Below are positions 7,491 through 64,000 of a stretch of 64,000 nt of DNA, in pieces. The DNA is from an uncultured Chloroflexia bacterium. Its GTDB lineage: Bacteria > Chloroflexota > Dehalococcoidia > Dehalococcoidales > UBA2162. The stretch lies in the NCBI GenBank assembly GCA_963745605.1, contig CAVUYC010000012.1, forward strand, positions 63,050-127,049, given 5' to 3'. The stretch's first letter is position 1, and every line of letters starts with the position of its first letter. Under the pieces are notes generated by a model. That model was not told where the DNA came from. It did no database searches and was given only the letters and a program-made list of their open reading frames with translations. The position numbers and the translations under genes are program-made.

Positions 7491-8421
7491 TTAGCCAGGT
7501 AGATGAAGCCCCAATGTCTCGAGGCGCTCCTCCAACTCCTGTTTAGATTTGATACCGAAATTCCGCAGCGACATCAGCTCTTTTTCGCTCTTGGACATCA
7601 ACTCCCCTACGGTATTGATGTTGCCACGCCTCAGACAATTCAAAGTACGTACGGACAGGTTAAGCTGCTCCACGGGCATCTTTGCTAGTCCCTCATCGAT
7701 AGCAGGCAGCGCGAACTCTTTCTCTCCAGGCTGTACCGAAACATGGCTAAGGTTAGCCAGAGGTGACAGCTGCGAAATCAGTATGTCTGCGGCCGAAGAG
7801 ACAGCTTCGGCAGGAGTCACCGTCCCATCAGTCCACACCTCTAAGACAAGGCGTTCATGACCTGTCTCCTGCCCCACATGGATTGGCTCAACAGTAAAAT
7901 TCACCTTGCGAATCGGGGTGAAAATAGCATCAACAGGGATCGTCCCCACAGGCAGATTCCCACTGGACTCGGCCTCGCGATACCCACGTGCAAGCTCTAC
8001 GTCAAATTCCACGTTGAGCCAGCGCGTCCTCGGAATCGAGATTCGCCAGGTAAAGATCCGGATTGGCAATCTCGAAATCCGCTGAAGGGCGAATATCCGC
8101 CGCCGTTATAGCCCGCTCGCCTTCAACATCCAGCATCAGCTTGCCGGACTGCCCGCTAACCGGCTTGATTCTCAACGCCTTCACGTTCAGCAAAAACTCA
8201 GTAGTATCCTCTTTCACATGTGGAATTGTGGAGAACTCATGGTGAATGCCGTCGATTCTCACGCGGGTAACAGCCGCTCCCTCAAGAAAGCCCAGGAGAA
8301 CCCGGCGCATCGAGTTTCCAATAGTGACGCTAAATCCCTTCTCAATCGGTTCGACGGAGAAGCGGCCGTAGTTATCTCTGGTTTCGACAGTCTCCACCTT
8401 AGAGACTATTAGGTCAGACAC
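7491..8421 (-). CDS. rpoA: DNA-directed RNA polymerase subunit alpha, interrupted by an apparent 1-nt insertion (two overlapping ORFs 8002..8421 and 7491..8069)
   Basis: N-terminal [46 protein letters not shown]... and C-terminal ORF ...[17 protein letters not shown]...[18 protein letters not shown]... are both RpoA; they join if one nt is skipped at about 8016-8025. Confidence 0.9.
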
Positions 8422-10080: not shown

Positions 10081-10299
10081 TTATTTAAAACGATACGTGA
10101 TTCTGCCACGAGTCAGGTCATACGGCGACAACTCCACCAGCACCCTGTCTCCAGGCAGTATCTTTATATAATGCAGTCTAATCTTACCAGATATGTGGGC
10201 CAGTACCTTATGCCCGTTCGCCAACTCGACGCGAAACATAGCATTCGGTAATGGCTCGGCCACTACCCCTTCCACCTCGATCGTCTCTTTTTTTGCCAT
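10081..10299 (-). CDS. infA: translation initiation factor IF-1
   Basis: [72 protein letters not shown]; in the ORF track it is fused in frame to the upstream map ORF. Confidence 0.93.
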
Positions 10300-10307
10300 A
10301 ATCCTCG

Positions 10308-11058
10308 CTATAGGGCCGTCAACACTGTTCGCGGCGCCATCGGTAACGGCTATACTATGTTCAAAATGAGCTGCCCAGCCCCCGTCAACCGTGGACACCG
10401 TCCAGTTGTTAGGGCCCACTTCGGTATGCCAATCGCCCATACAGACCATCGGCTCCAAGGCAAACGTCATGCCTTTTCTCAGCATTGGCCCCTGCCCGCG
10501 TATCCCAAAATTCGGGATCTGAGGATCCTCGTGCATATCGCGTCCAATCCCGTGACCGGTGTACTCGCGGATCACAGCGAATCCTCTACCCTCAACATAA
10601 TCCTGAATCGCCGCGGAAACATCACCCATTCTAGCGCCAACTCTTGAAGCATCGATCCCGGCGTTGAGCGCACCCTCAGTTGTCTCCATCATCATCTGCA
10701 CTCGACTGTCCAGTTTCCCCACACCCACAGTGAACGCCGAATCGCCCTGATAACCCTTGTAGATAGCGCCAAAATCAATGGAGACCAAGTCCCCGGGTTT
10801 CAAAGCACGCTGGTCCGGAATCCCGTGGACTATTTCCTCATTCACCGAGACACAGATACTCGCCGGGTACCCTCTGTACCCCTTGAAAGAAGGCACTGCA
10901 CCCAGCCTTGCTACCTCTCTAACAGCTATCCGGTCCAACTCCCTGGTTGTAATACCGGAGCGAACCTCGGACTTCAATCGATCCAACACTTCCGCGACAA
11001 TGCGCCCCGCTTGTCGCATCAATTCAATCTCACCGGCCGATTTCAGCGTTATGCTCAT
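10308..11058 (-). CDS. map: type I methionine aminopeptidase (3' end frame-shifted; the literal ORF reads through into infA, 10081..11058)
   Basis: [24 protein letters not shown]...HGIP...[16 protein letters not shown]...[14 protein letters not shown]...ALEPM...[11 protein letters not shown]; skipping one nt at about 10330-10338 gives a typical end ...TDGARTVLTAL* (or [11 protein letters not shown]) with TAG at 10308-10310. Confidence 0.88.
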
Positions 11059-36172: not shown

Positions 36173-38176
36173 CTAGCCGGGCTTGACAGCCATCATGGAT
36201 CGCATGTGGGTGATATCGTCCAGCCACAGCTTGGGCTCCGCCTCAGAAGGCATTCGCCAATCGCCCCTGGGCGACAGGCTGACAGAGCCGACTTTCGGAC
36301 CTTCGGGGAGGCACGTTCGCTTGAATTGATTCGCGAAGAATCGCCGGATGAAGCTTCTTTCCCACTTCTCTATCTCGTCCAGAGAGTATCTCTTTTCGAA
36401 GAGACCTTGACCGGAGACCAGATTGCAGAGGTAGAGTATCTTTCCGGGCGCCATCCCGAATCTGATGAACGGATACAGGAAGAAGTCCGCCAGTTCCACA
36501 GGGCCGATAACCTCTTCACTTAATTGGGTGATCTTGCCTTCTTCGGGTCGCTGCAGCTCAGGCGAGATCGGCGTGTCCAGGATATCATGCAATATCGCGT
36601 GCGCCGGACTATCTGCGAGTTCCTCTTCCGCCACCCACCTCACGAGATACTGCACCAGAGTCTTCGGCACTGACGCGTTGACGTGATAGTGAGACATGTG
36701 GTCGCCCGAGAAGGTGGACCACCCCAATGCTATCTCGGTAAGATCTGCCGTTCCCAGAAGAAGGGCATCCACTTGGTTTGCCTTGTTGAAAAGGAAATCA
36801 GTCCGATACCTGGCCTGGACATTCTCGAACACTACGTCGCCATCGCCCGCATGTTCCAGGTCTCGGAGATGGCTTTCGCTGCTCTCAACAATGCTCACCT
36901 CGGTCAGACTCACGCCTAGCGAACGCGCAAGCTCAATGGCGTTCTTCTTCGTACGCCCTGTCGTGCCAAACCCGGGCAAAGTGAATGCCTGAATGTTCTG
37001 GCGCGGCAGCTTACAGAAGTCCATCGTCTTCGCTGCGACCAGCAAAGCATGTGTCGAATCAAGTCCGCCAGAGATGCCTATCACCAGTCTCTGTTTCTTC
37101 GCTCCGCGCAGCTTCTGGGCCAGGCCGGCGATCTGCATCGAGAATATATCGCGGCATCGTTCAGCCCTTCTGGCTGTGTCTTGAGGCACAAACGGGTAGG
37201 CGTCCAGAGAGCGAACCAGCGCTCCCGCCGGGGGGTCTGTCACTTCGACGTCGACCATACGGCAAGGCTCGACCTGAGAAGCCATGATTCTGAAGCTGTT
37301 CTTGTTTCTGCGGTCGTAAACGAGGCGTTCGACATCTATATCGTTCACCAGCAGCTGGGGCTCCGAAACAAGTACCTCAGACTCTTTGAGTATTACTCCG
37401 TTTTCAGCGATTAGGGCGTGTCCGCTGTAAACGATATCGTTTGACGACTCGCCTATCCCCGAAGACGTGTAGCAGTATGCAGCCGAACATCTTCCTGATT
37501 CGGAGGACAGCATCGTTCTGCGCCATTCTGACTTCCCCAGAATCTCGTTGCTGGCGGACAGGTTGACCAGGATGGTTGCGCCGGCAAGAGCCTGACTCTC
37601 GTGGGGAGCGAGAGGCAGCCACATGTCCTCACAAATCTCCACTCCTACCAACGCGTCGCCGCCGTTCAGCCTGAACAACACGTCAGGCCCAAAAGGAGCT
37701 GATTGGCCGGCTAGCGTGACCGACTCGATGTTCGGGTCCGATCCGCTCCACCACCTCTCTTCATAGAACTCCTTGTACGTAGGCGGAAGGGACTTGGGGA
37801 CAACTCCTGCGATCATCCCAGACGACAGCCCAACAGCGCAATTGAAGATCCGCTGGCCGGCTGCTACAGGCATGCCCACGAAGATCAGCATTGGCGGGCC
37901 GGCTGCACTCAGCTTCAGGAGACGCCCAAGCCCACTCTCAGCTTTCTGTAGGAGCACTCTGTGATGGACCAGGTCCGCAAGCGTGTAGCTGGTAAGCGCC
38001 ATCTCGGGAAACGCCAGGACCTGCACTCCGAGATCTCGTGCCTGTTCCACGATCTTGGCTATCTCGGACACATTGAAGTCAACGTCGGCTACCCGTAACG
38101 CGGGGACGGCCACTCCAACTCGAACAAACCCCAAGGTTCCGGTAAGGCTAACCCTGCCTTTTCTGGAAGGTGGCAT
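36173..38176 (-). CDS. nadE: glutamine-dependent NAD+ synthetase (long form: nitrilase-like + synthetase domains)
   Basis: 667 aa; N-terminal CN-hydrolase domain (…FPEMALTSY…, …EICEDMW…), then the SGGLDS PP-loop. Confidence 0.88.
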   Translation of the reverse strand: MPPSRKGRVSLTGTLGFVRVGVAVPALRVADVDFNVSEIAKIVEQARDLGVQVLAFPEMALTSYTLADLVHHRVLLQKAESGLGRLLKLSAAGPPMLIFVGMPVAAGQRIFNCAVGLSSGMIAGVVPKSLPPTYKEFYEERWWSGSDPNIESVTLAGQSAPFGPDVLFRLNGGDALVGVEICEDMWLPLAPHESQALAGATILVNLSASNEILGKSEWRRTMLSSESGRCSAAYCYTSSGIGESSNDIVYSGHALIAENGVILKESEVLVSEPQLLVNDIDVERLVYDRRNKNSFRIMASQVEPCRMVDVEVTDPPAGALVRSLDAYPFVPQDTARRAERCRDIFSMQIAGLAQKLRGAKKQRLVIGISGGLDSTHALLVAAKTMDFCKLPRQNIQAFTLPGFGTTGRTKKNAIELARSLGVSLTEVSIVESSESHLRDLEHAGDGDVVFENVQARYRTDFLFNKANQVDALLLGTADLTEIALGWSTFSGDHMSHYHVNASVPKTLVQYLVRWVAEEELADSPAHAILHDILDTPISPELQRPEEGKITQLSEEVIGPVELADFFLYPFIRFGMAPGKILYLCNLVSGQGLFEKRYSLDEIEKWERSFIRRFFANQFKRTCLPEGPKVGSVSLSPRGDWRMPSEAEPKLWLDDITHMRSMMAVKPG

Positions 38177-38213: not shown

Positions 38214-39563
38214 CTACAAAATCGGATAGTACTTTTCCAGCTCATACCCGGTGACCTGAACCCTGTACTGGTCCCATTCAATCCTCTTATTCTTCACGAA
38301 AGCGTCGAAAAGGTGGTCGCCGAGAGTCTCACGCATTAACTTGCTATTCTCGAAAAGCTGAAGCGCCTCCTGAAGGCTGCCGGGAAGCTGACCAATGCCT
38401 CGCCTGTTTCTTTCTGCCTCGCTCATGTGGTATACGTTTTCTTCCACGGGTGGGGGCAGTTCCAGCCCTTCCTTTATTCCCGCCAGGCCGGCGGCTAGAA
38501 GTACGCTGAAGCACAGGTATGGGTTGGCGGCGGGATCGGGAGAGCGTATCTCAAATCTTGTCTCTTTTTCGCCACCAACCTTGTAGTTCGGCAGCCTGAT
38601 CAAGTCAGAGCGATTCCGTTGTGCCCAGGACAGGTACACCGGAGCCTCATATCCCGGAACAAGTCGCTTGTATGAATTGACCCACTGGCTCGTTACTGCG
38701 GTGAACTCAGGCGCATACTTCAGCAGTCCCGCCAGAAAGCTTCCACCAATCTTCGACAGATAATATTTCGATTTGGGATCAAAGAACGCATTCGAGTCTC
38801 CACGGAAGAGTGACTGATGGACGTGCATGCCGCTTCCATTGATGCCGAAGACTGGCTTTGGCATGAACGTCGCGTACACGCCATGCATCAGAGCGATCTG
38901 CTTGACTACCAGTCGGTAAGTCATCACGTTATCGGCCATGGTCAGAGCATCGTCGTAGCGCATGTCAATCTCATGCTGGCTGATGGCAACTTCATGGTGC
39001 GACTTGTCAACAGCTATGCCCAATTCCTCCAACGCCAGTACGGTGTCTCGTCTCAAATCATGCGCCGCGTCATGGGGGTCCATATCGAAATAACCGCCAT
39101 TATCGAGCGGTTCGGTCCCCTTGTTGTCCTTGAAGTAGAAGTACTCCAGCTCGGGACCCACGTAGTAAATGTATCCGAGATCAGCAGCCTTCTTCAGATT
39201 TCGCTTCAAAACATACCGAGGGTCGCCATCGAAGGGGACCAGTTCGGGCGTGTATACGTCGCAGATCATCCTCGCGACCGGTCCATACTCTCTGGGCCTC
39301 CATGGAAGCAGCTGAAAAGTATCTGGGTCTGGCATCGCGATCATATCGCTTTCGTCGATGCGGACAAATCCTTGAATGGATGATCCGTCAAAACCGACCC
39401 CGTCCTCGAGGGCTCCCTCGAGTCCCTCTACTGGAATGGCAAAACTCTTCAGAAAACCCAGGATGTCGGTGAACCACAGTCGGACGAACTTAACGCCTTG
39501 TTCCTTGGCGGTCTTCAGGACATAGGCCTTGGCTTCTTTAGCGCTTTTCTCGGGGAGAGGCAT
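38214..39563 (-). CDS. glnA: glutamine synthetase type I
   Basis: 449 aa; ...FVRLWFTDILGFLKSF...FDGSSIQGF...GSGMHVHQSLF...NSYKRLVPGYEAP... Confidence 0.93.
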   Translation of the reverse strand: MPLPEKSAKEAKAYVLKTAKEQGVKFVRLWFTDILGFLKSFAIPVEGLEGALEDGVGFDGSSIQGFVRIDESDMIAMPDPDTFQLLPWRPREYGPVARMICDVYTPELVPFDGDPRYVLKRNLKKAADLGYIYYVGPELEYFYFKDNKGTEPLDNGGYFDMDPHDAAHDLRRDTVLALEELGIAVDKSHHEVAISQHEIDMRYDDALTMADNVMTYRLVVKQIALMHGVYATFMPKPVFGINGSGMHVHQSLFRGDSNAFFDPKSKYYLSKIGGSFLAGLLKYAPEFTAVTSQWVNSYKRLVPGYEAPVYLSWAQRNRSDLIRLPNYKVGGEKETRFEIRSPDPAANPYLCFSVLLAAGLAGIKEGLELPPPVEENVYHMSEAERNRRGIGQLPGSLQEALQLFENSKLMRETLGDHLFDAFVKNKRIEWDQYRVQVTGYELEKYYPIL

Positions 39564-39692
39564 AGGTCCTCCTCACGTTTCCGGAATGCCGGAATTATAT
39601 CATATAGACACGCCGCGTCCTTAAGGTCTGGCCAGCATCGAGCAATCCACATCTCTTCTATGGGTTGGTTCTGCCAAGTCTGCAGCGCATAA

Positions 39693-39730
39693 GACAGAGG
39701 AGGGCACCCTTGAGGGTGCCCTCCTCTGTC
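39693..39730 (-). terminator. 16-bp GC-rich hairpin downstream of glnK (terminator or attenuator; weak U-tract)
   Basis: GACAGAGGAGGGCACC (39693-39708) / GGTGCCCTCCTCTGTC (39715-39730), 6-nt loop; only TTAT follows on the minus strand. Confidence 0.5.
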
Positions 39731-39836: not shown

Positions 39837-40208
<372 letters not shown>

Positions 40209-41441
40209 CTATGGGAGACCTCCGTAAGCTCTTTCACCGTGCTGAGATATGTCCAGACCGACCCTCTCTTCGACTTCGTTGACTCTCAGGCCGATGGTTG
40301 CCTTGACGGCCTGCGCCAGAAGCCAACTAGCTCCAAAAGAGTACGCCCACACCACCGCTACCGCGACGAACTGCTTGCCAAGAAGCGCGACGTTGCCCCC
40401 TATCAGACCGTTTGCCCCAGCAGAGTTTACGGACGCCAGGGCGAAGATCCCGGTAGCGATGGCTCCCCATGTTCCACCCATCCCATGGCAGGCCCAAACA
40501 TCGAGTGACTCATCCACGCCCATCTTCCTTGCACGAAAGACCATCAGGTAGTAAGAGATGAGCGACGCGATCGCACCGATCGGAATGCCGGCCCAGGGGG
40601 GGACGAACCCCGCCCCAGGGGTGATCGCAACCAACCCCACGACAGCTCCGGTAACGGTGCCGAGTAAAGATGGCCTCTTGTGAAACCAGCTCAGGAGCAT
40701 CCATGTGAAAGCAGCGGCAGCGGCAGCGGTGTTGGTAGCCACGAAGGCACTCGAGGCAAGGCCGCCCGCTGTAAGAGCGCTGCCTGCATTAAAGCCGAAC
40801 CAGCCAAACCACAACAGGGCCGCGCCGAGAACGACCATGCCTATGTTGTGAGGTTCCATGGCATCTTTCTTGTAGCCCTTTCGCGGACCGAGCACCATGG
40901 CCAGAGCCAGGGCTGCTACGCCGGCGTTAATGTGGACAACCGTTCCACCTGCAAAATCAAGGGCCCCTAGCTTGGACAGCCAGCCTCCTGACGCCCACAC
41001 CCAATGCGCCACCGGGGCGTACACTAGCGTTAGCCACAGGCCAGCAAACACCATCAAAGCGCTGAACTTCACCCTCTCCACCACCGCGCCTGTGAAAAGC
41101 GCAACGGTGATAATGGCAAACATGCCCTGGTACATCATGAACGCCAGATGAGGCACTGTAGTCGCGTACGTGGACGAGGGACTCTGGCCTACGTTAGCAA
41201 GGCCAAACCAGTCCAGGCCCCCTATTATCCCTGCCTTGTCCGGACCGAAGCTGAGACTATACCCATACAAAACCCAGAGCAGGCCCACCATCGCCAGAAT
41301 CGCGAAGCTCATCATGATGGTGGAAAGCGCATTCTTCCGCCTTACCATCCCGCCGTAGAAGAGGGCAAGGCCGGGAGTCATTAGCATCACCAACGCAGCG
41401 GACATCAAGATCCAGGCAGTATCGCCCGAGTTGATACCCAT
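40209..41441 (-). CDS. amt: ammonium transporter (copy 2, linked to glnK)
   Basis: 410 aa; MGINSGDTAWILMSAALVMLMTPGLALFYGGMVRRKN...DFAGGTVVHINAG... Confidence 0.93.
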   Translation of the reverse strand: MGINSGDTAWILMSAALVMLMTPGLALFYGGMVRRKNALSTIMMSFAILAMVGLLWVLYGYSLSFGPDKAGIIGGLDWFGLANVGQSPSSTYATTVPHLAFMMYQGMFAIITVALFTGAVVERVKFSALMVFAGLWLTLVYAPVAHWVWASGGWLSKLGALDFAGGTVVHINAGVAALALAMVLGPRKGYKKDAMEPHNIGMVVLGAALLWFGWFGFNAGSALTAGGLASSAFVATNTAAAAAAFTWMLLSWFHKRPSLLGTVTGAVVGLVAITPGAGFVPPWAGIPIGAIASLISYYLMVFRARKMGVDESLDVWACHGMGGTWGAIATGIFALASVNSAGANGLIGGNVALLGKQFVAVAVVWAYSFGASWLLAQAVKATIGLRVNEVEERVGLDISQHGERAYGGLP

Positions 41442-41488: not shown

Positions 41489-41526
41489 GTTTCTGACTCA
41501 TTTCGAGCGTGTTACGCCCGGGTTAA
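41489..41526 (-). promoter_or_regulatory. four direct pentamers with exact 11-bp phasing upstream of amt copy 2 (candidate OmpR/GlnR-type box array)
   Basis: Sense strand TTAAC-ccgggc-GTAAC-acgctc-GAAAT-gagtca-GAAAC (plus-strand pentamers at 41522, 41511, 41500, 41489); lies in the 96-bp amt-amt spacer. Confidence 0.5.
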
Positions 41527-41537
41527 AGTTCCAGGCG

Positions 41538-42773
41538 CTAAGGAACCGGGCCGGAGAACGTCTCACCGTGCTGGGAAATATCTAGCCCAACACGCTCCTC
41601 GACCTCGTTCACTCTGAAACCCACCACTGCCTTAAGTGCAGTGGCAAGCACCCATGTCATGCCAAATGAAAATGCAGCGATTACGCCCACTCCGACTAGT
41701 TGCTTCCATAGCAATGCACTTCCGCCAGATATCAACCCGTTGGCCCCGGCTGGGTTAACCGCTACTGTGGCGAAGATTCCGACAGCTATGACTCCCCACG
41801 CTCCTCCTATTCCATGGCAGGCCCAAACGTCGAGGGACTCATCCACACCCATCCGTTTCGCTCTGAACAACATCACGTGATATGAGAGGAGCGCCGCGAC
41901 CACTCCTATGGGCAACCCCGCCCAGGGTTGGATAAACCCCGCCGCCGGTGTGACCGCTGCCAGGCCTACTACAGCCCCGGTAGCCGCTCCCAGTAGGGAC
42001 GGTCTCCTGTGAAACCAGGACAAAAGCATCCAAGTCAGGCCCGCGGCCGCGCCAGCGGTATTGGTGGCCACAAACGCACTCGAGGCAAGGCCACCGGCAG
42101 TGAGCGTGCTTCCAGCATTGAATCCGAACCATCCGAACCACAGCAGGGCCGCCCCGAGCACTACCATCGCTATGTTGCTCGGCTCCATCGGTTCTCTCTC
42201 GCGGAAACCTTTTCGAGGACCGAGGACAATGGCGAGTGCCAGAGCGGAGACACCCGCATTCACATGCACTACCAGCCCGCCGGCAAAGTCGAGCGCGCCG
42301 AGCTTGCCCAACCACCCACCAGACCCCCAGACCCAATGCGCCACAGGGGCGTACACAAAGGTGAGCCAAAGAATAGCAAATACCATCAACGAGCTGAACC
42401 TGATTCTCTCAACTACCGCTCCAGTGAAGAGGGCAACCGTGATGATCGCAAACATGGCCTGATAGATCATGAAAGCTAGGTGAGGCACCGTGGTCGCGTA
42501 GACAGTCGACGGCGATTGACCTACGTTGACTAACCCGAACCAGTCGAGGCCTCCAATAATACCTCCCTTATCCGGGCCGAAACTGATGCTATATCCGTAG
42601 ATTACCCAAAGGACTCCTATCAGAAGCATGATGGCAAAGCTCATCATGATCGTTGATAAGACATTCTTCCGACGGACCATGCCTCCATAGAAAAATGCCA
42701 GCCCCGGCGTCATGAGCATGACCAGCGCCGACGAGGTCAGAATCCATGCGGTATCCCCGGCGTTAATCCCCAC
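41538..42773 (-). CDS. amt: ammonium transporter (copy 1)
   Basis: 411 aa, GTG start after GGAGGA; MGINAGDTAWILTSSALVMLMTPGLAFFYGGMVRRKN...; close paralog of copy 2. Confidence 0.93.
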   Translation of the reverse strand: MGINAGDTAWILTSSALVMLMTPGLAFFYGGMVRRKNVLSTIMMSFAIMLLIGVLWVIYGYSISFGPDKGGIIGGLDWFGLVNVGQSPSTVYATTVPHLAFMIYQAMFAIITVALFTGAVVERIRFSSLMVFAILWLTFVYAPVAHWVWGSGGWLGKLGALDFAGGLVVHVNAGVSALALAIVLGPRKGFREREPMEPSNIAMVVLGAALLWFGWFGFNAGSTLTAGGLASSAFVATNTAGAAAGLTWMLLSWFHRRPSLLGAATGAVVGLAAVTPAAGFIQPWAGLPIGVVAALLSYHVMLFRAKRMGVDESLDVWACHGIGGAWGVIAVGIFATVAVNPAGANGLISGGSALLWKQLVGVGVIAAFSFGMTWVLATALKAVVGFRVNEVEERVGLDISQHGETFSGPVP

Positions 42774-42856
42774 TTGACGTCCTCCAATAATTCACGAGTT
42801 GAGCCAATACGAGCTTTCGGCAGCAAAACACGAAACAACAAGCATATTGCGAAAAT

Positions 42857-42883
42857 GTTTCAGATATGTTTCGTGCACGTTAA
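42857..42883 (-). promoter_or_regulatory. three direct pentamers with 11-bp phasing upstream of amt copy 1
   Basis: Sense strand TTAAC-gtgcac-GAAAC-atatct-GAAAC (plus-strand pentamers at 42879, 42868, 42857); aligns with the promoter-proximal three of the amt copy 2 array, both followed by AT. Confidence 0.5.
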
Positions 42884-42928: not shown

Positions 42929-43612
42929 CTAATGAGGGTCAAAATTTAGCTGTCGGCGCGGCAAACGGTAGCCGATATTCCGAACCGTCTCGATAAACGA
43001 GTGTGTGGGATCTTCTATCTTGCTTCTCAATCGTCGGATGTGCACGTCCACAGTTCGATCGCCTCCGAAATAGTCGAACCCCCACACTTTGTCCAACAGC
43101 ATTTCGCGTGTGCACACTCGGCCCTGATTGATAATCAGAAACTTCAGAAGTTCGTATTCCTTAAAAGTAAGTACAATTGGTCGATCGCCGACGAAGACCT
43201 CGCACCGTGCCTGGTCAATCCTGAGATCTCCGCAGACCAACTCTTGCTCGCTTAACGCGTTCGATGTGTGCAGGAGCCGTTTTACCCTGAGCTGCACTTC
43301 GTCGATGTTGATGGGCTTGGTGGCGAAGTCGTCGATCTTGCTGAATTGGCCGTTTGCTCGGCCTAGCAGGTCCCCGCGCACGACTCCCAGGATGGGCAAT
43401 CCGCTGTCTCCTTTGATCTCCGAAGACAGCTCCGATACCCTGGAATAGCTGTCACTCTCAATGATCACCAAATCAGGCTCCTGCCCACCACGCCAGTCTG
43501 TTAACGATCCGTCATCGAGAGCAAAGGCACATGTGTAACCGCTCTGGGAGAGATAACGTGTTAGCATCTCCCCACTGGCTCTATCCTGAGCAATAATGGA
43601 GACTCTGACCAA
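42929..43612 (-). CDS. orphan OmpR/PhoB-family response regulator with aspartate-less receiver domain (GlnR-like by context)
   Basis: 227 aa; winged helix LTFKEYELLKFLIINQGRVCTREMLLDKVWGFDYFGGDRTVDVHIRRLRSKI...VRNIGYRL; receiver has IIAQDRA (no DD), PDLVIIESD (Glu at the phospho-Asp position), ILGVVRG (no Thr/Ser), ATKP retained. Confidence 0.85.
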   Translation of the reverse strand: MVRVSIIAQDRASGEMLTRYLSQSGYTCAFALDDGSLTDWRGGQEPDLVIIESDSYSRVSELSSEIKGDSGLPILGVVRGDLLGRANGQFSKIDDFATKPINIDEVQLRVKRLLHTSNALSEQELVCGDLRIDQARCEVFVGDRPIVLTFKEYELLKFLIINQGRVCTREMLLDKVWGFDYFGGDRTVDVHIRRLRSKIEDPTHSFIETVRNIGYRLPRRQLNFDPH

Positions 43613-43620
43613 TTGCCCCC

Positions 43621-44379
43621 CTAATAGGCGTAAAGACGCCCGTAAGGTCGCAGATACTTTGGCGTAAGTTTGATGTACTTGTCCCCGAGTATCTTGTTCG
43701 TGTCGAGTCCGAAGTGCGCTCCGTACTCGGCAAGTAGCCCGTTGAGCACCTCGCGATCGCCGTCGTCTAGGCTGCCCATGCCAACTTCCTTGCCGACCTG
43801 ATAGTCGTCTACTGTGCCCCGGATGTAGATGACCCCGGCGTGCATCCCCGTGCCTATAAAGTCGGCTTTGTGATGCATGGACCCATTCAAAGTGAGACCA
43901 AGCAGGACCAATACGCCTCCCGCCATGTACTCACCGGCGAAGTCCTGCGCCGTTCCACCAACCACCACTATTGGCTTCTTGCCTCTGTACTCTTTCATGT
44001 GGATGGCAGCTCGATATCCCACGTTGTCACGCACGAAGATCTTGCCACCGCGAGCCGACATGCCTATGATGTCCCCCGCATGGCCCTCTATCACAATCTC
44101 TCCCTCGTTCATTGTGTTGCCACATCCGTCCTGAGCGTTGCCATGAACAGTGATCCGGGGCCCATTCATAAACATGCCAAGGTCGTTTCCGGGAGTACCT
44201 TGAATATCAATCGTTACGGGGCGGTCAAGATCTGTACCGATATAGCGCTGCCCGCAGACATTCTTTAGCTCGATGATATCGATGCCACGGGACACAGCAT
44301 CTCGCAGCTTCGTATTGAGGTCTTTGAACAGGAGGCCACAGGCATCCACAGTGACTCTGGTTTCAACAGTCGTCTTCAT
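43621..44379 (-). CDS. glutamate synthase GXGXG-domain subunit (GltB C-terminal domain as a separate protein)
   Basis: 252 aa; beta-helix repeats ...IQGTPGNDLGMFMNGPRITVHGNAQDGCGNTMNEGEIVIEGHAGDIIG... Confidence 0.85.
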   Translation of the reverse strand: MKTTVETRVTVDACGLLFKDLNTKLRDAVSRGIDIIELKNVCGQRYIGTDLDRPVTIDIQGTPGNDLGMFMNGPRITVHGNAQDGCGNTMNEGEIVIEGHAGDIIGMSARGGKIFVRDNVGYRAAIHMKEYRGKKPIVVVGGTAQDFAGEYMAGGVLVLLGLTLNGSMHHKADFIGTGMHAGVIYIRGTVDDYQVGKEVGMGSLDDGDREVLNGLLAEYGAHFGLDTNKILGDKYIKLTPKYLRPYGRLYAY

Positions 44380-44380
44380 T

Positions 44381-45886
44381 CTAGTCCCCTACCATTCTTA
44401 CACCGAGGATGTCGAGCTCTTTATCACTTAAGCCGATCCCCCTGAGATGAAGCCGGTTCCCCCGCAGACTCTCGATGGCGTTCACCCCGAGTCCTCCCAG
44501 GATATCCTTGAGTTCCAGGCTCCAGCCCCTGAGCAACCCGGCAAGTCTGCGTGAACTGATCTCAGGGTTCAAACGCTTTCCGAGAAATAGGTCGCTTGTC
44601 GATATGCCCCAGGCGCATTTTCCGGTGTGGCATTGCTGACAGATGGTACATCCCATAGCCACCAACGCGGCCGTACCGATGTTGACGGCGTCTGCGCCAA
44701 GTGCAATTGCTTTCGCAACATCACCTGCGCTTCTGATGCCCCCGGAGATTACGATGGACGCCTGGTTCCGTATGCCTTCTTGTCTCAACCTGGTGTCCAC
44801 CGCTGCGAGTGCCATTTCGATGGGAATCCCCACGTTATCGCGGATTACCTTTGGCGCCGACCCAGTCGCGCCCCTGAGACCGTCAAGCACGATTATGTCG
44901 GCTCCGGCCCTGACCATTCCGCTGGCAATTGCCGCCGAGTTGTGCACCGCAGCAATTTTCACCGAGATGGGTTTCGTGTAATTCGTGGCTTCCTTCAGAG
45001 CGAAGATGAGCTGAGCCAAATCCTCGATCGAATATATATCATGTTGAGGTGCAGGAGACAGGGCATCGGTTCCCTTGGGTATCATGCGAACAGCCGATAC
45101 TTCAGCGCTTACCTTTTCTCCTGGCAAATGTCCGCCTATGCCCGGCTTGGCTCCCTGGCCGATCTTGATTTCCACAATTCTGCCAGCGTCGAGGTACTCC
45201 TGATGCACTCCGAACCTACCCGATGCCACTTGAACGATAGTGTTCTGGGCATACTTGTAGAGGCTCGGATGAAGCCCACCCTCTCCGGTATTCCACATTG
45301 TTCCCATCTCTGTGGCGGCCCTGGCCAGCGACTCCTGAGCGTTTAGACTGACGGCGCCGTAAGACATGGCCGAGAACATCACGGGCACCAGCAGCTTCAC
45401 CTGGGGGGCAATATTCGTTTTTAGACTCACCCCGTCCAACCCCACCTCCACCCTGTCCGGCTTCCTGCCCAGGTAAGTAGTCAACTCCATGGGTTCCCGA
45501 AGAGGATCAATCGAGGGATTGGTAACCTGACTGGCGTTAAGGACCAGGTGGTCCCAGTACACCTTCTGACCCTTGTCATCACCCATGCCGGTCAGCAGCA
45601 CGCCACCAGTCTCGGCCTGCTTGATGATGTCTTCGATATACTCCGGTCGCCAGTTGTCATTCTGCCTGTAGGCGAGCTCGTTCTTTTTTATGTTCAACGC
45701 TTTCGTAGGGCAGAAAAGGACGCATCGATGGCACCCTACACAATTACCCTCGTTGCTCTTGACCTCGTCGTCATCAGCATCGTAGTAGTGCGTCTCAAAG
45801 CTGCATTGGTTCACGCAGACTTTGCACCGGATGCACCTCTCTTTGTTCCGCTCAACTTCGAATCGGCCTGGCAAATAGGTCTTCAT
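44381..45886 (-). CDS. glutamate synthase FMN/synthase-domain subunit with N-terminal 2x[4Fe-4S] ferredoxin domain
   Basis: 501 aa; CIRCKVCVNQC...CVGCHRCVLFCP, then ...MSYGAVSLNAQESLARAA...NTGEGG...KIGQGAKPGIGGHLPG... Confidence 0.88.
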   Translation of the reverse strand: MKTYLPGRFEVERNKERCIRCKVCVNQCSFETHYYDADDDEVKSNEGNCVGCHRCVLFCPTKALNIKKNELAYRQNDNWRPEYIEDIIKQAETGGVLLTGMGDDKGQKVYWDHLVLNASQVTNPSIDPLREPMELTTYLGRKPDRVEVGLDGVSLKTNIAPQVKLLVPVMFSAMSYGAVSLNAQESLARAATEMGTMWNTGEGGLHPSLYKYAQNTIVQVASGRFGVHQEYLDAGRIVEIKIGQGAKPGIGGHLPGEKVSAEVSAVRMIPKGTDALSPAPQHDIYSIEDLAQLIFALKEATNYTKPISVKIAAVHNSAAIASGMVRAGADIIVLDGLRGATGSAPKVIRDNVGIPIEMALAAVDTRLRQEGIRNQASIVISGGIRSAGDVAKAIALGADAVNIGTAALVAMGCTICQQCHTGKCAWGISTSDLFLGKRLNPEISSRRLAGLLRGWSLELKDILGGLGVNAIESLRGNRLHLRGIGLSDKELDILGVRMVGD

Positions 45887-45895
45887 GGTTCTTCC

Positions 45896-46672
45896 TTAGG
45901 TCCTCACTGGAATGCCCCTCTGGGCAAGGTACTCTTTTGTCTGTTTGATTGAGTAAGTGCCGTAGTGAAATATGCTCGCCGCAAGCACAGCGTCCGCCTT
46001 GCCAGCGACTACCGCCTGGTAGAGGTCTTCGGGAGTTCCCGCCCCGCCGCTGGCGACGACCGGCACCGTGACGCTTTCGGATATTGCTTTAAGAAGCTCA
46101 AGATCATACCCTGCTTTCGTTCCGTCAGCGTCGATGCTATTCACCACTATCTCGCCCGCTCCGAGTTGGACTGCCTTCTGAGCCCACTCAACAGCATCCA
46201 GTCCTGTGCCTCGGCCCCCGTCGGCGCCCGTGTAAATGAAGACCTCCCAACGGGTGGGATCCAAACCTGGAACTCGCTTGGCATCCATCCCGAGTACTAT
46301 GCACTGACTTCCAAAATGTCTGGCTCCGTCACGTATAAGTTCAGGAGTGCGCACTGCGGCCGTGTTGATAGACACTTTGTCAGCACCTGCCTCAAGCATT
46401 CGCCGCATATCGTCGACAGATCTTAGTCCGCCACCCACCGTCAGGGGAATGAATATCTGCCTGGCCGTCCTCTCCACAACATCCATCATGATCGGTCTGT
46501 AGTCACTGGAAGCCGTGATGTCATAGAACACAAGCTCATCGGCACCTTCCTCGTAATAATGCGCCGCCAGCTCAACGGGGTCTCCGGCATCTCGGTGTCC
46601 CTTGAATTGCACTCCTTTTACTACCCTGCCGCCCTTGACATCAAGGCAGGGAATGATGCGTTTTGTAAGCAC
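45896..46672 (-). CDS. hisF: imidazole glycerol phosphate synthase cyclase subunit HisF
   Basis: GTG at 46672 overlapping the upstream stop (TAGTG): (M)[54 protein letters not shown]...SINTAAV...VASGGAG...AASIFHYG. Confidence 0.9.
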
Positions 46673-47808
46673 TATCCTATCCTGCTTATCGCAGCCTCCG
46701 GTGTGACCAGCGGACGCTTCAGGCTGCCGATAATCGGTTCGCCGCCAGTCGGACTCCACGACTTGTCCAAATCTGGACAAATCAGCCTTATCGCCGACTC
46801 TTCCGACGAAAGGAAGAGCACTTGACCCTTGACCCCCACCGTCAATGGCCGCAGCCTGATACGGTCAGTAAGTCCGATCATCTCTCCTTCATGGGCGATG
46901 ATTATAGTGAACGGACCATTCATGAGAAGGCTTGCGTAGACCTGCCTCAACGCTCGGACCAGCGCCTTCTCCTTTTCCGGCATTCGCTCGATCGCATCCC
47001 ACAGGGGAGGGGCGAATACCTTCGCTACCAGCTCAATCGGCAAGTTATGTCTTCGCACAAGCAGATCCACAGCGTACGCCAGCACTTCAGTATCGGTCTG
47101 CATGGTGCACACATATCCAAACTGCTCGAGATATCTCCTGTTGATCCCGTAGGACGAAATCTCGCCGTTATGAACTACGGTCCAATCGAGGATTGAAAAT
47201 GGGTGCGCGCCCCCCCACCAGCCTGGGGTGTTCGTCGGAAAGCGGCCGTGGGTAGTCCACAGATACCCCTCGTACTCCTCCAGTCTGAAATAATCGGCAA
47301 TCTCCTCCGGATACCCCACTCCCTTGAAGACACCCATGTTCTTTCCACTTGAAAACACAAAGCTGTCCTCAAGTTTGGTGTTGATCTGCATCACTTTTTC
47401 CACGACATAGTCGTCCGCCGATCTGCCCTCTAGCTTGATGGGCGGGATGTCGAGGAAGTAGCGCCGCACGACCGGACCGATTGGTATCGCCGCAGTTGGT
47501 CTCGTTGGTATTTCTTGAGCATCGACGACACGGAATTGGCTCTTGAGAAAATTCTCCGTGGCGTCCTGCCCGGCCTCGCTCGAGAACATGATATGAAATG
47601 CATAAAGGTCCGCGTGTTCCGGGTAAAGACCGTACACAGCGAAACCACCACCCAGCCCGTTTCCTCGAAAATGCATGTTTGCGATCGCTTTGATCACGCC
47701 CTCGCCAGAAAACCTCTTGCCCGAGGTGTCCATAGCCCCGAAGAGCGAACAGGCATCGATTACTTTCTCGTCATCATTCGGATTGCTGATTATGCGCAGG
47801 TCTTTCAT
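46672..47808 (-). CDS. class II glutamine amidotransferase subunit (GltB N-terminal domain as a separate protein)
   Basis: 378 aa; ...[42 protein letters not shown]...[21 protein letters not shown]...[10 protein letters not shown]; the nucleophile Cys is preceded by about 19 aa (propeptide or mis-set start). Confidence 0.8.
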
Positions 47809-47885
47809 TTCGTGCTCCGATTTACCTCACCGGTAGGCCTTGGCGTGAGAAATGCTTCCCTATCGACCCTGGCCTTCTCGTCCGG

Positions 47886-49229
47886 CTAGTCTCCGCCCAT
47901 GTCTTCTTTCGTTTCGTCTTTCACGGTCAAAGCATGAAAGCCCTCGGGCACCAGCCCCAATCTTTCTTTGAGCAGCGTTTCCGGCAGGGAAGTGAGACCG
48001 AAATTGGCAGAGACCAGTTCACTTTTGAACTTACCGACTTTAACCCTGTCTCTCATCAGGCCCAGCATGACGCCTGACCTGTCGACGTCGCCACAAAGCA
48101 CCATTCCCACCACAATATCGTCCTTGATGACGACCTTCCTGATCTGATGATCTGTGCGAGTCCCTATGGTTTCAAAGCTGTTGTCGGGAGGAACCGATAT
48201 TCCCGCAGACGCTATTGCTAGTCCGAAGTACTTCAGCGAATTCATTGCCGTTCCGCCGCTGTATTCGGTGGGCCGTCCTGCCATGTTAAGTCCGGCAACC
48301 CTTCCGCCGATGTAGGCGTTTGGCCATATCGGGCTCAGCCGATTGCTTTGGTACACGAAATCATAGGCCTCGGCAGCATCACCGCAGGCATATATCCCGT
48401 CAGAAGAAGTCATCATGTGCCTGTCTACCAGAATTCCGCGGTTGGTCTTGATGGGGGTGCCTGCCACAAGGTCAAGCCTGGGTCTTACTCCGATGGCCAT
48501 TACCAGCATCTGGCACACGATTTCGCGACCATCGTCCAGCGAAACGCTCGTAATCCCGCCTTGTTCCGTTTTGGCCTTGGCGACAGTATGGTTGGTCACC
48601 ACCTCAATTCCCGCCTGCTCAAGCGCCTCCCTGGCGACCGCAGATGTCTCTTCATCGATGATCGTGTTAAGGACCCTGTCCTTCATTTCCACAATGGTAA
48701 CCGAGACATTCCTTTTGACAAGAGCCTCGCTCACGCTGAAGCCGATGAGGCCTCCGCCTATTACTACCGCATGAGTACGTTCGCTGCCCCGCCTCTCCAG
48801 GAATTTGTCTATCGCTTTGGCGTCATCGAGAGTGGTAAACGTAAAGAAGTCGTCTTTGGTTGCCCCCACCACCTGAGACACAATAGGGGTCCCGCCCGGA
48901 GCGAGCAGTAGGCTCTCCCAAGCTACGGTCTGGGAATCGCCCAATTCAACGGTGCGGCACGCGACATCAACTTTTGTTACTTTCTTTCCAAACATCGTGT
49001 TGACGCCGTTCTTCACATAGAAGTTCGAAGGGCGGTAAAGCATTCGATCCAGGGTCGCGTGCTTGGCCAGATACTCGGAGATCATCGGCCTTGAATATGC
49101 CGGATACGGCTCTTCCGAGATGAGAGTGATAGAGCCGGCCTTGTCTACCAACCTTATCGCCTCGATCGCGCCGATTCCGCCGGCCGAATTGCCTATTATG
49201 AGATATTTCGCCTTAATCTCTTCTGCCAT
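47886..49229 (-). CDS. FAD-dependent pyridine nucleotide-disulfide oxidoreductase family protein (NADH-oxidase-like; probable electron-input subunit of the split GOGAT)
   Basis: 447 aa; YLIIGNSAGGIGAIEAI (FAD fold), HAVVIGGGLIGFSVSEAL (NAD fold), ...IYACGDAAE... Confidence 0.75.
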   Translation of the reverse strand: MAEEIKAKYLIIGNSAGGIGAIEAIRLVDKAGSITLISEEPYPAYSRPMISEYLAKHATLDRMLYRPSNFYVKNGVNTMFGKKVTKVDVACRTVELGDSQTVAWESLLLAPGGTPIVSQVVGATKDDFFTFTTLDDAKAIDKFLERRGSERTHAVVIGGGLIGFSVSEALVKRNVSVTIVEMKDRVLNTIIDEETSAVAREALEQAGIEVVTNHTVAKAKTEQGGITSVSLDDGREIVCQMLVMAIGVRPRLDLVAGTPIKTNRGILVDRHMMTSSDGIYACGDAAEAYDFVYQSNRLSPIWPNAYIGGRVAGLNMAGRPTEYSGGTAMNSLKYFGLAIASAGISVPPDNSFETIGTRTDHQIRKVVIKDDIVVGMVLCGDVDRSGVMLGLMRDRVKVGKFKSELVSANFGLTSLPETLLKERLGLVPEGFHALTVKDETKEDMGGD

Positions 49230-49243
49230 GGAACTTCCTTACC

Positions 49244-49864
49244 CTACTGGATTGCGCGCCTGATAAAGTTGTCGTACATCCGCAACCCTGGCACACCGCT
49301 CTTCTCCGGGTGAAATTGGGTTGCCACCAGATTGCCTTTTGCGATAGCGCTGCATACATTGACCCCGTATTCTGCTTCCCCGATGACAACGGACCTGTCT
49401 TCCGGCACGGCATAGTAGCTGTGCACGAAATAGAAATTCGTGTTATCGGCAATGCCTTCGAAGACGGGATGCTTCTTCAACTGTTTTACCTGATTCCAGC
49501 CCATATGCGGGGTCTTTAGCCCCGGTGGCAGCAACTTCACCTGACCACGAATCACGTCAAGGCAATCGCAGTTTCCGTCTTCTTCGCTACGGGTGAGAAG
49601 CACCTGAAGCCCAAGACATACGCCGAAGAACGGCTTGTCCTCCGCTATATACTCTCGGATGGGATCCATCATCTGCCTTTTCTTTAAGCTGCTCATGGCC
49701 TGGGCCGCCGCCCCCTGCCCGGGGAAAATGACTGCCTTCGCGGTGCGTAGATCCGCAACTGAGTCGGTTATTTTGGGACTGTAACCAAGCTTCGACAGAG
49801 CATTGGCAACGCTCTTGATATTGCCGGCACCGTAATCCAGGATCAGGACTTCAATTAGTGACAT
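49244..49864 (-). CDS. hisH: imidazole glycerol phosphate synthase glutamine amidotransferase subunit HisH
   Basis: ATG at 49864: MSLIEVLILDYGAGNIKSVANALSKLG...PGQGAAAQAM...FFGVCLGLQVL (Cys nucleophile)...FVHSYY...ATQFHPEKSG. Confidence 0.9.
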   Translation of the reverse strand: MSLIEVLILDYGAGNIKSVANALSKLGYSPKITDSVADLRTAKAVIFPGQGAAAQAMSSLKKRQMMDPIREYIAEDKPFFGVCLGLQVLLTRSEEDGNCDCLDVIRGQVKLLPPGLKTPHMGWNQVKQLKKHPVFEGIADNTNFYFVHSYYAVPEDRSVVIGEAEYGVNVCSAIAKGNLVATQFHPEKSGVPGLRMYDNFIRRAIQ

Positions 49865-50309
49865 CGGTTGCTGGAGCCTCGCCATAGACTAGTGCTTCGT
49901 TGGGGCAATTCGCGACGCAGTACGGCATTTCTTTCCCCTGGCACAAGTCACATTTTATAATTTTGCCCTGGTTCGTGTCTCTCTTTGGAGCCGATACAGG
50001 ACAGGCGAGGACACAGGTCCAACAGCCAATGCATTTTTCGGTATCCACGGTGACCACGCCGGTGTCTGGATTCTTGCTCAATGCACCGCTCAGGCACGAA
50101 TACACGCACAGCGGCTCGTCGCAATGGCGGCACTGAAGAGCAAAGGACACCGGACGGGCTTCCTCAACGCGCACGGCTGCCAGTGGGGGAGCCGTCTTCC
50201 CGTTGAACGCCTTGATCAGATCCTCGGTCGGAGAGTGAGCCAGCCTGCAATACACCTCACAGAGGTGACATCCAATACAAACATCGCTCTTTGCGTAGAC
50301 TCTCTTCAA
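49851..50309 (-). CDS. 4Fe-4S dicluster/polyferredoxin-like protein
   Basis: 152 aa, TTG start after GGGGGA; CIGCHLCEVYC, CRHCDEPLCVYSC, CIGCWTCVLACP, CDLC...CVANCP. Confidence 0.8.
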   Translation of the reverse strand: MKRVYAKSDVCIGCHLCEVYCRLAHSPTEDLIKAFNGKTAPPLAAVRVEEARPVSFALQCRHCDEPLCVYSCLSGALSKNPDTGVVTVDTEKCIGCWTCVLACPVSAPKRDTNQGKIIKCDLCQGKEMPYCVANCPNEALVYGEAPATDVTN

Positions 50310-50363
50310 GGTGTTCCCCCGTAGCGGTAGACGGCAACCATTTACCGTCTACATTATTTCAAT

Positions 50364-50393
50364 ATTCTAACCGGTTAGTCAGGGTAGTGTCAA
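50364..50393 (-). promoter_or_regulatory. sigma-70-like promoter of the Fd-hisH-GOGAT-regulator operon with an embedded 12-bp palindrome
   Basis: Sense TTGACA (50393-50388) - 18 nt - TAGAAT (50369-50364); perfect palindrome CTAACCGGTTAG (50367-50378) spans the spacer/-10 junction. Confidence 0.5.
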
Positions 50394-63395: not shown

Positions 63396-64000
63396 TCATT
63401 TGACCAGATTAAGCTTGATCGCCATTGCTACCGCTTCAGTGCGGCTCGAAGCAGCCAACTTGGAGAGGATGTTGCTCACATGGAACTTCACCGTCGACTG
63501 GCTCACAATCAGCCTTGCCGCAATGTCGGCGTTTGAAAGCCCTTCCACCATTAGGGCCAGGATGTCCTTTTCCCTTTCCGTAATGTCGTACGTCGGTTGA
63601 GCCGGCTCGTTTACCTTCCTAATGAGGACCTGGGCCGCCTCCGGAGACAGGCTTGGCTGACCCGACGCCGCCCTTCGAATCGAAGAAATCAGCTCATCTG
63701 CCGTAACATTCTTCAGCAGATAGCCCGTTGCCCCAGCTTTGAGGGCGCCCTCCACATATTCTTTTTCCTTGAAGCTGGTGAGCGCGATCACCTTTGTCTG
63801 CGGCCATGACTTGAGGATCGCCTGTGTGGCGGCCACTCCGTCCATCTTGGGCATAAGCAAGTCCATCAGCACAACGTCAGGATTCACCTTCCCGCAAGCA
63901 CGGACCGCCTCCTCGCCATCGCTGGCCTCGGCCACCAGTTCCATGTCGTCGCAGGCCATGAGCACGGCAGCGAGCCCGCTCCTTACCACCGTGTGGTCAT
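63396..64000 (-). CDS. NarL/FixJ (LuxR-type) response regulator, 5' end beyond window
   Basis: Frame stays open to nt 64000 (…DHTVVRSGLAAVLMA...); receiver PDVVLMDLLMPKMDG, TSF, KAGATGYLLK; HTH ...LTEREKDILALMVEGLSNADIAARLIVSQSTVKFHVSNILSKL. Confidence 0.88.
   Translation of the reverse strand, partial: DHTVVRSGLAAVLMACDDMELVAEASDGEEAVRACGKVNPDVVLMDLLMPKMDGVAATQAILKSWPQTKVIALTSFKEKEYVEGALKAGATGYLLKNVTADELISSIRRAASGQPSLSPEAAQVLIRKVNEPAQPTYDITEREKDILALMVEGLSNADIAARLIVSQSTVKFHVSNILSKLAASSRTEAVAMAIKLNLVK

Follow-up and report, generated by a model that had tools for sequence, protein, structure and literature searches.

The stretch of DNA analyzed here (64 kb, referred to throughout as the window) encodes an orphan OmpR/PhoB-type regulator that is lodged between an operon for a split glutamate synthase (GOGAT) and a set of genes for ammonium transport and glutamine synthesis. 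We consider it likely that this protein is a kinase-independent regulator of the GlnR clade that acts on pentamer boxes in two amt promoters. As judged from homologues and related loci, the source lineage would be an uncultured, Dehalococcoidia-like member of the Chloroflexota. Sequence comparison supports the assignment of the regulator as a Chloroflexota member of the GlnR clade, by homology and not by analogy. A GlnR-like role had been offered in a first-pass annotation of this region on the basis of architecture, and it is now backed by matches in the PDB, by a tree and by the promoter boxes.

The regulator combines a well-defined winged helix with a receiver half that is barely recognizable from its sequence. 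Trans_reg_C (PF00486) matches residues 144-217 with an E value of 8.6e-28, in line with the earlier description of this half as a standard OmpR/PhoB winged helix. It is the only Pfam domain found, and Response_reg gave no Pfam match at E ≤ 1e-3. The full-length NCBIfam models MtrA, PhoB and YycF span residues 3-217, with scores of about one third of their cut-offs. An AlphaFold model calculated with 34 homologues as input shows a confident two-domain fold with a mean predicted local distance difference test (pLDDT) score of 83.8, in which the receiver beta-sheet and helices alpha1, alpha3 and alpha5 are retained, while alpha2 is absent and alpha4 is short. In Foldseek searches the effector domains of PhoB, YycF and GlnR matched this model with template modelling (TM) scores of 0.86-0.91. 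The comparison of the full-length model with the PDB was also considered as a subfamily test, but it returned generic OmpR/PhoB regulators with PhoP on top and did not discriminate.

Homologues of full length, about 221 amino acids, are numerous and share 39 invariant columns, mostly in the DNA-binding half. Across this family the DNA-binding domain is near-invariant while the receiver half drifts, and the records that name its members refer to generic response regulators only. The TTG start codon of the regulator gene is plausible because the protein begins with MVRVSIIA, which corresponds to the MFRILIIA-type beginning of the homologues, and the 8-nt gap to the preceding GXGXG gene holds a G-rich, Shine-Dalgarno-like run. 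Note that the opposite end of the protein differs from that of a 97%-identical homologue, P0001, which terminates in GYRLRADS. The window has an extra C in GCCGCGCC (42929-42965, minus strand) that moves the frame after L217, so that the regulator ends in GYRLPRRQLNFDPH before its stop codon. This 1-nt indel may reflect natural variation or a mistake in the assembly, and the changed tail falls past Y215, the last DNA-contact residue.

As evidenced by the PDB searches, the closest structurally characterized relatives of the regulator are GlnR proteins. Its top sequence matches are 8hih_O, 8hig_A and 8hml_A, all of them GlnR, and with the DNA-binding domain alone as a query the GlnR chains 8hml, 8hig and 8hih scored 96-98 bits, about 15 bits ahead of the next match, with RegX3 at 82.7 and WalR at 77.3 bits. 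8HIH represents M. tuberculosis GlnR in a transcription-activation complex and 8HML the DNA-binding domain of S. erythraea GlnR (SaeGlnR) on DNA; 8hig is given in the Foldseek matches as the same S. erythraea domain on cognate DNA. In SaeGlnR, residues R186, V190, R193 and R194 read the bases of the GTAAC motif. All four are identical in the regulator and even carry the same residue numbers, and T149, K151, R169, W177, T187, H191, R196, T209, R211, N212 and Y215 are likewise identical. The base-reading residues and all listed phosphate contacts are invariant or nearly so across the regulator family. Further signatures are shared by the clade and GlnR: G184 is present in 100% of the clade versus 5% of canonical regulators, and N212, which in SaeGlnR touches both DNA and the neighbouring protomer, in 82% versus 2%. 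L83, A76, V78 and K157 are held in common with GlnR and are rare in canonical regulators.

A phylogeny, one of the checks proposed in the first-pass annotation, placed the regulator in one clade with GlnR. The neighbour-joining tree of 117 sequences (residues 70-217, 60 bootstraps) separated 76 GlnR-like proteins from 41 canonical regulators in 59 of the 60 bootstraps. The larger group holds the window protein and its Dehalococcoidia family, other Chloroflexota, glnA-linked regulators from metagenome-assembled genomes (MAGs) of Acidimicrobiia and Solirubrobacterales, and the two solved GlnR proteins. Among the related loci that we fetched (labelled L001 and so on), L010 has a sister Chloroflexota protein that is close to GlnR: its residues 41-221 match M. 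tuberculosis GlnR with 132.6 bits, compared to 102 for RegX3, and it has D-x-R at the phospho-site and Thr at position 8, the residues of the GlnR charge network discussed below. On these grounds L010 appears to bridge the window subfamily and GlnR. The T...D-x-R triad is found in the sister Chloroflexota L010, L014, L018 and L030, and L011, L015 and L028 have Ser in place of Thr.

The second line of evidence comes from the promoters. Each of the two amt genes is preceded by an array of G(T/A)AA(C/T) pentamers with spacers of exactly 6 nt, i.e. 11 bp apart (Table 1). These boxes match the published GlnR consensus, given as gTnAc-n6-GaAAc-n6-GtnAC-n6-GAAAc, as t/gTAAC-n6-Gc/aAAC in M. smegmatis and as a GTAAC core in the co-crystal. 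The phased pentamers reported in the first pass are real: a triple-box pattern occurs three times in the window versus 0.05 times expected, always in the two amt promoters, and 34 times in 17 loci (316 kb) versus 0.93 in shuffled sequences. The spacing is equally specific, as the 34 matches obtained with 6 nt compare to 0-2 for any other spacer from 3 to 9 nt. In the window this significance is limited to arrays of at least three boxes. Two-box patterns were tried alone and dropped, being not enriched there (GAAAC-n6-GAAAC with one mismatch, 5 versus 4.1; GWAAY-n6-GWAAY, 3 versus 1.3). Arrays adjoin the regulator gene not only in the window but also in L081 and in 16 related loci of Chloroflexota. 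In the related loci they are always on the coding strand and occur only between the regulator gene and amt, or before glnA or a glnA-like gene. Two loci of Actinobacteriota type, used as a positive control, have such boxes directly before glnA, and loci of canonical regulators, the negative control, show scattered AT-rich matches only.

In the amt1 promoter a TATGCT hexamer follows 10 nt past the third box, and the distance from the end of the last box to a -10-like hexamer is 10-11 nt in most loci. This position agrees with the GlnR activation complex, where the b2 site is downstream of the -35 element. No sigma70-like -35/-10 pair was found before amt1 or amt2, as is expected for activator-dependent promoters. 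Within the window neither glnA nor the GOGAT operon is preceded by a GlnR-type array, which leaves the two amt promoters, an ammonium-uptake module, as the only direct targets predicted here; several relatives carry arrays before glnA or glnA-like genes. Of the gene set for which a GlnR-like role had been suggested in the first pass, the amt promoters do have boxes, but glnA and the GOGAT operon do not.

To describe the receiver pocket we combined a HMMER alignment to RegX3 with a MAFFT alignment to 20 canonical regulators, which have E/D-D, D, T and K at the relevant positions. In the regulator the phospho-Asp position is occupied by E52 in both alignments, at the end of beta3 in the model, the Thr/Ser position by V78 (V77 in the other alignment) at the end of beta4, the Lys position by K99 at the end of beta5 and the acidic pair by A8-Q9 at the end of beta1, with D10 aligning one residue further on. 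Apart from the Lys, the canonical catalytic quintet is lost (A8, Q9, E52, V78, K99), and the protein has a receiver fold without the phospho-acceptor Asp, E52 taking its place at the end of beta3; neither alignment revealed an intact acceptor that might have been overlooked. The Glu at the phospho-Asp position and the loss of the conserved Thr/Ser had been recognized correctly. The acidic pair had been read as Q-D, which is shifted by one residue; whichever alignment is used, the pair is lost. None of the 120 closest homologues has an acidic residue at position 8. At position 52 they have Glu (70), Ala (19), Asp (18) or, in the remainder, Val, Gly, Thr, Gln or Ser, and 119 of them have Val, Leu or Ile at the Thr position. 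The acidic pair and the Thr are missing from all 120. The Lys, earlier described as the only residue kept, is indeed present in the regulator, but it is retained in just 51 of these homologues. The receiver half is degenerate, with the fold itself kept in the model, and the alignments indicate that this degeneracy is a family trait. Glu is the commonest Asp substitution in aspartate-less receivers and a known phosphomimic, and Glu52 may be a built-in phosphomimic or merely a structural residue.

A cognate kinase was not found either. A Pfam scan of all open reading frames (ORFs) of at least 150 amino acids across the whole 64 kb yielded no HisKA or HATPase_c domain, which extends the earlier statement that no kinase lies within about 20 kb. 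In the related contigs examined there was no histidine kinase beside the orthologues. The regulator is an orphan within the window, and a kinase may be present in another part of the genome. The window has one further response regulator only, a canonical NarL/LuxR-type protein at its very edge (Response_reg and GerE, 63396-63989, minus strand) that is unrelated to the OmpR-type regulator and whose start and any partner kinase would fall past position 64000.

Several points weigh against a straightforward identification with GlnR. In actinomycete GlnR the conserved, unphosphorylated Asp50 interacts with Arg52 and Thr9, and the resulting charge network stabilises the homodimer; the regulator has E52, D54 and A8 instead, and its own receiver half aligns to GlnR from residue ~70 only. 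The tree was built by neighbour-joining only, from 147 columns, with two bona fide GlnR proteins that are both partial and with outgroups drawn from one and the same pattern search. A recognition helix nearly identical to RTVDVHIRRLR of the regulator is present in WalR/YycF, and WalR has the GlnR contact residues as well. Direct repeats of a similar GTAA type are recognised by WalR and MtrA, so that, with the helix shared by WalR, the type of box alone is not GlnR-specific. Finally, as glnA and the GOGAT operon have no array, the regulon may be narrow here. Because the subfamily has swapped the GlnR charge network for E52, D54 and A8, its sequence marks the regulator as a GlnR variant and not as a plain member.

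In the mechanism that we propose, the pseudo-receiver would most likely serve as a dimerisation or tetramerisation module only, using the alpha4-beta5-alpha5 face. Protomers would bind head-to-tail to three or four pentamers in boxes that would overlap and flank weak -35 regions of both amt promoters, and once bound they would recruit RNA polymerase and, when nitrogen is limiting, turn on GlnK and ammonium uptake. Such a mode of action has been established structurally for M. tuberculosis GlnR; for the regulator, we infer binding to the boxes and activation as its effect. The opposite outcome, in which the regulator binds the same boxes but represses amt and glnK by occluding the promoter when nitrogen is plentiful, is conceivable as the boxes span -35 to -24 and could block RNA polymerase, and as regulator and GOGAT share a transcript that starts from a strong promoter. 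We nevertheless hold it to be unlikely, for the same geometry with the last site downstream of -35 activates in the solved complex of GlnR and RNA polymerase, the amt promoters have no recognisable -35, which is typical of activator dependence, and GlnR as a rule activates amtB. It is distinctly unlikely, in our judgement, that the boxes are operators of a canonical MtrA-, WalR- or PhoP-like regulator elsewhere, with the pseudo-receiver protein regulating otherwise or being inert. The rest of the genome does lie outside the window, WalR has the same recognition-helix residues, and according to PMC9151340 Streptomyces MtrA controls the same nitrogen genes as GlnR. The arrays, however, are placed directly downstream of the regulator gene in the window and in the 16 related loci plus L081, no further OmpR-type gene occurs in the related loci examined, and a near-invariant DNA-binding domain with a drifting receiver is what one expects of a working DNA binder.

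Two further alternatives concern the receiver itself. Control by phosphorylation might persist through Glu52, through D54 or D47 (of the conserved PD motif) or through Ser/Thr residues, with the help of an unlinked kinase. D54 and D47 are close by, GlnR of S. coelicolor carries modifications at Ser/Thr and Lys, and 18 of the 120 closest homologues do have Asp at position 52; against this stand the loss of the acidic pair and the Thr in all 120 and of the Lys in all but 51, the variability of position 52 (E, A, D, V, G, T, Q, S) and the absence of a linked kinase from every locus examined, and we regard this option as very improbable. That the gene is a decaying, non-functional remnant of a two-component system is scarcely credible. 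The degenerate pocket, the receiver domain missed by Pfam and the indel by which the C-terminal tail differs from that of P0001 (97% identical) could be taken in this sense, but the many full-length homologues with invariant columns concentrated in the DNA-binding domain, the conserved synteny and adjacent cis-element and the confident two-domain model are at odds with decay.

As to signal input, our preferred guess is that a GlnR-type activator that has neither kinase nor acceptor residue would be controlled via its own synthesis. The best sigma70-like promoter of a scanned 13-kb region stands before the regulator's operon, and just downstream of it we found the perfect palindrome GTAGACGGTAAATGGTTGCCGTCTAC with the core GGTAA-N4-TTGCC, a candidate for either an NrpR-type operator or a hairpin in the 5'-untranslated region. 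In the fetched loci GGTAA-N4-TTRCC occurs only 5' of the GOGAT operon (L003, L009), 5' of the regulator gene (L005, L006) and, in these two loci, again 5' of amt2, directly beside the box array of that gene; L008 has the counterpart GGAAATGGGTTTCC (GGAAA-N4-TTTCC) 5' of hisH-hisF-nrpR-regulator. The palindrome thus precedes the regulator-encoding operon or gene in the window and in L003, L005, L006, L008 and L009, and it was found only 5' of operons of the nitrogen locus. All counterparts of the window palindrome are at L003:2181, L009:34, L005:2879 and 5137, L006:9853 and 15972, and L008:2760. Homologues of NrpR, a 2-oxoglutarate-responsive repressor of nif and glnA in methanogens, are encoded beside or near the regulator gene in most close relatives: proteins with NRD1_2 and a winged helix-turn-helix domain (E values of 1e-64 to 1e-74) are encoded between GOGAT/hisF and the regulator in L003, L008 and L009, and NrpR is found beside the regulator in L003, L004, L008 and L009 and nearby in L001, L005, L007 and L081-L083.

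The palindrome and the adjacency of nrpR suggest a cascade from repressor to activator. An archaeal-type NrpR would sense 2-oxoglutarate at the palindrome and so gate the joint synthesis of GOGAT, HisHF and the GlnR-like protein, and the GlnR-like protein, constitutively active with Glu52 as a natural phosphomimic, would turn on amt-glnK. If true, this would account for how a regulator without kinase and without acceptor can still follow nitrogen status. The broader hybrid scheme, in which old GlnR-type pseudo-receiver activators of Chloroflexota and Actinobacteriota act as a second tier under NrpR in Dehalococcoidia-like bacteria, is tentative, and we take it to be possible rather than probable. 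It has to contend with the fact that tblastn detected no NrpR in the 64-kb window, that the palindrome at 50327-50352 could equally be an RNA hairpin of -15.8 kcal/mol, and that a loose NrpR-like pattern, GG[TA]A-N6-T[TAG]CC, was not clearly enriched (44 matches versus 27.3 +/- 4.9 in shuffled sequences) and was set aside.

Of the known systems, actinobacterial GlnR (M. tuberculosis Rv0818, S. coelicolor, S. erythraea, A. mediterranei) is the most similar. It is an orphan OmpR/PhoB-type protein that has no kinase and acts without phosphorylation, and besides providing the best match for the DNA-binding domain, with all DNA-contact residues identical, it shares with the regulator G184, N212, the PxxAxV strand beta4 and the Val at the Thr position. 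Its GTAAC/GAAAC pentamers have 6-nt spacers, form coding-strand arrays of three to four whose last site falls between -35 and -10, and are located at amt-glnK/glnA genes. The differences are the phylum, Chloroflexota here versus Actinobacteriota, the replacement of Asp50 by Glu (E, A, D or V in the subfamily) and of Arg52 and Thr9 by Asp54 and Ala8, a length of 227 versus ~255 amino acids, the location of the gene at the end of a split-GOGAT/hisHF operon, with its predicted targets following immediately downstream, the frequent NrpR neighbour in relatives and the restriction of boxes in the window to the amt promoters. Streptomyces GlnRII, which we compared by description and not by sequence, is also an OmpR-type nitrogen regulator that has lost all three phosphorylation residues, has no linked kinase and possesses a GlnR-like recognition helix, but it reportedly lacks alpha4/beta5, whereas the regulator model keeps beta5 and alpha5. 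H. pylori HP1043, C. trachomatis ChxR and S. pneumoniae RitR combine a pseudo-receiver with a winged helix as well, and they are active without phosphorylation and usually constitutive dimers. They belong to unrelated lineages with other regulons, none of them linked to nitrogen assimilation, and RitR and HP1043 (2hqr) were generic fold matches only to our model in Foldseek. The NrpR operator is GGAA-N6-TTCC. The euryarchaeal NrpR system has parallels in relatives that encode NrpR beside the regulator and in a palindrome at the operon promoter that resembles this operator, but the window has no nrpR and its core reads GGTAA-N4-TTGCC.

The features of the locus are summarized in Table 1. Profile matches verified the gene order given in the first-pass annotation, with the regulator as the last cistron of the GOGAT operon, 8 nt past the GXGXG gene, followed by amt, amt-glnK, glnA and nadE. 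On the minus strand the operon reads fer4, hisH, pyridine-nucleotide oxidoreductase, GATase_2, hisF, Glu_synthase/FMN, GXGXG and regulator, the genes other than the last two occupying 44381..50309. The strong terminator described behind the regulator is confirmed as far as its 17-bp stem is concerned, but the T-tract is weak; the hairpin is probably the terminator of the GOGAT-regulator operon in spite of this.

Table 1. Coordinates of the regulator gene, its neighbours and associated elements in the window, and of nrpR homologues in related loci (locus:positions)
Feature	Position	Strand	Remarks
nadE, glutamine-dependent NAD synthase	36173..38176	-	37 nt after glnA
glnA, type I glutamine synthetase	38214..39563	-	profile matches; promoter without GlnR-type array
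Hairpin after glnK	39693..39730	-	17 bp, -38.8 kcal/mol; between amt2-glnK and glnA
glnK (P-II)	39837..40208	-	abuts amt2 end
amt2, ammonium transporter	40209..41441	-	profile matches
GlnR-type array, amt2 promoter	41489..41526	-	TTAAC-n6-GTAAC-n6-GAAAT-n6-GAAAC
amt1, ammonium transporter	41538..42773	-	profile matches
GlnR-type array, amt1 promoter	42846..42883	-	TTAAC-n6-GAAAC-n6-GAAAC-n6-GCAAT
Hairpin right after regulator stop codon	42886..42925	-	17 bp, -35.3 kcal/mol, z -7.98; weak T-tract UAUUU
glnR-like regulator gene	42929..43612	-	TTG start, 227 aa; orphan OmpR/PhoB-type, pseudo-receiver and winged helix
GXGXG-domain subunit, split glutamate synthase	43621..44379	-	ends 8 nt before regulator start codon
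Glu_synthase/FMN (Glu_synthase(FMN/Fe-S))	44381-45886	-	profile matches
hisF	45896-46780	-	as listed, true start probably near 46670; above TIGR00735 cut-off
GATase_2	46672-47808	-	profile matches
Pyridine-nucleotide oxidoreductase	47886-49229	-	profile matches
hisH	49244-49885	-	profile matches
fer4, first operon gene	49851-50309	-	profile matches
Palindrome	50327..50352	-	26 nt, perfect; just downstream of promoter 50364..50393
Best sigma70-like promoter of scanned region	50364..50393	-	TTGACA-18-TAGAAT, 11/12; before regulator's operon
nrpR homologue	L001:5559-6533
nrpR homologue	L003:8957-9955
nrpR homologue	L004:3-356
nrpR homologue	L005:8301-9263
nrpR homologue	L007:19910-20611
nrpR homologue	L008:4224-5222
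nrpR homologue	L009:6776-7786
nrpR homologue	L081:5567-6628

The order regulator, amt-(amt)-glnK, glnA is retained in L001-L009, L016, L019, L081-L083 and the contig of homologue P0007, and in MAGs of Actinobacteriota that belong to this clade glnA precedes the regulator. Within the operon, hisH and hisF, which encode the two subunits of imidazole glycerol phosphate synthase, are interspersed among the genes of a split glutamate synthase of archaeal style, an arrangement also seen in L002, L003, L009 and the P0007 contig. In L001, L007, L008 and L081 the regulator comes after hisH-hisF, either directly or, in L008, past nrpR. In many relatives a second gene resembling that of glutamine synthetase, divergent and with 35-39% identity to the glnA of the window, is located between glnK (or the regulator) and glnA (L003:12775-14175, L006:17708-19132, L016:6636-8075, also L017, L021, L023, L039 and L041). 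It is often the gene right behind the box array, and it is absent from the window. Upstream of glnA in the window, a perfect palindrome, TTCCGGCATTCCGGAA (39579-39594, minus strand), extends from the last base of the -10 element TATAAT to 8 nt before the Shine-Dalgarno sequence and looks like an operator for some other regulator. As a scan of the whole window against Rfam gave no match at gathering thresholds, no known riboswitch or leader accounts for the conserved 5' elements. Outside this locus, a 325-residue ORF at 10081-11058 (minus strand) joins a Peptidase_M24 methionine aminopeptidase (residues 12-240) to translation initiation factor IF-1 (residues 260-323), representing either a map-infA fusion or a missing stop codon. 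The match to RNA polymerase alpha at 7491-8069 (minus strand) comprises just 192 residues, with a partial dimerisation domain and the C-terminal domain, which suggests a frameshift or an upstream start in another frame.

OmpR-type GlnR has been treated as an actinobacterial regulator in the literature that we consulted, and full-text searches for work that links OmpR-type GlnR or NrpR to Chloroflexota, Chloroflexi, Dehalococcoidia or Dehalococcoides returned nothing relevant. The circuit is not categorically new; it would extend the GlnR type to a second phylum, in an aspartate-less form that may stand under a tier of archaeal type. Provided that the clade assignment is right, GlnR, its box and its unusual promoter geometry are older than the split of two large phyla or were transferred between them, and a concrete, testable regulator and operator would become available for nitrogen control in the largely uncultured Dehalococcoidia, which include bioremediation organisms. 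The subfamily also represents a natural experiment on the GlnR receiver, as an Asp that is essential in mycobacteria is freely swapped for Glu, Ala or Val. The adjacency of NrpR, in turn, points to a testable way in which orphan GlnR-type proteins may receive the nitrogen signal, a question of long standing.

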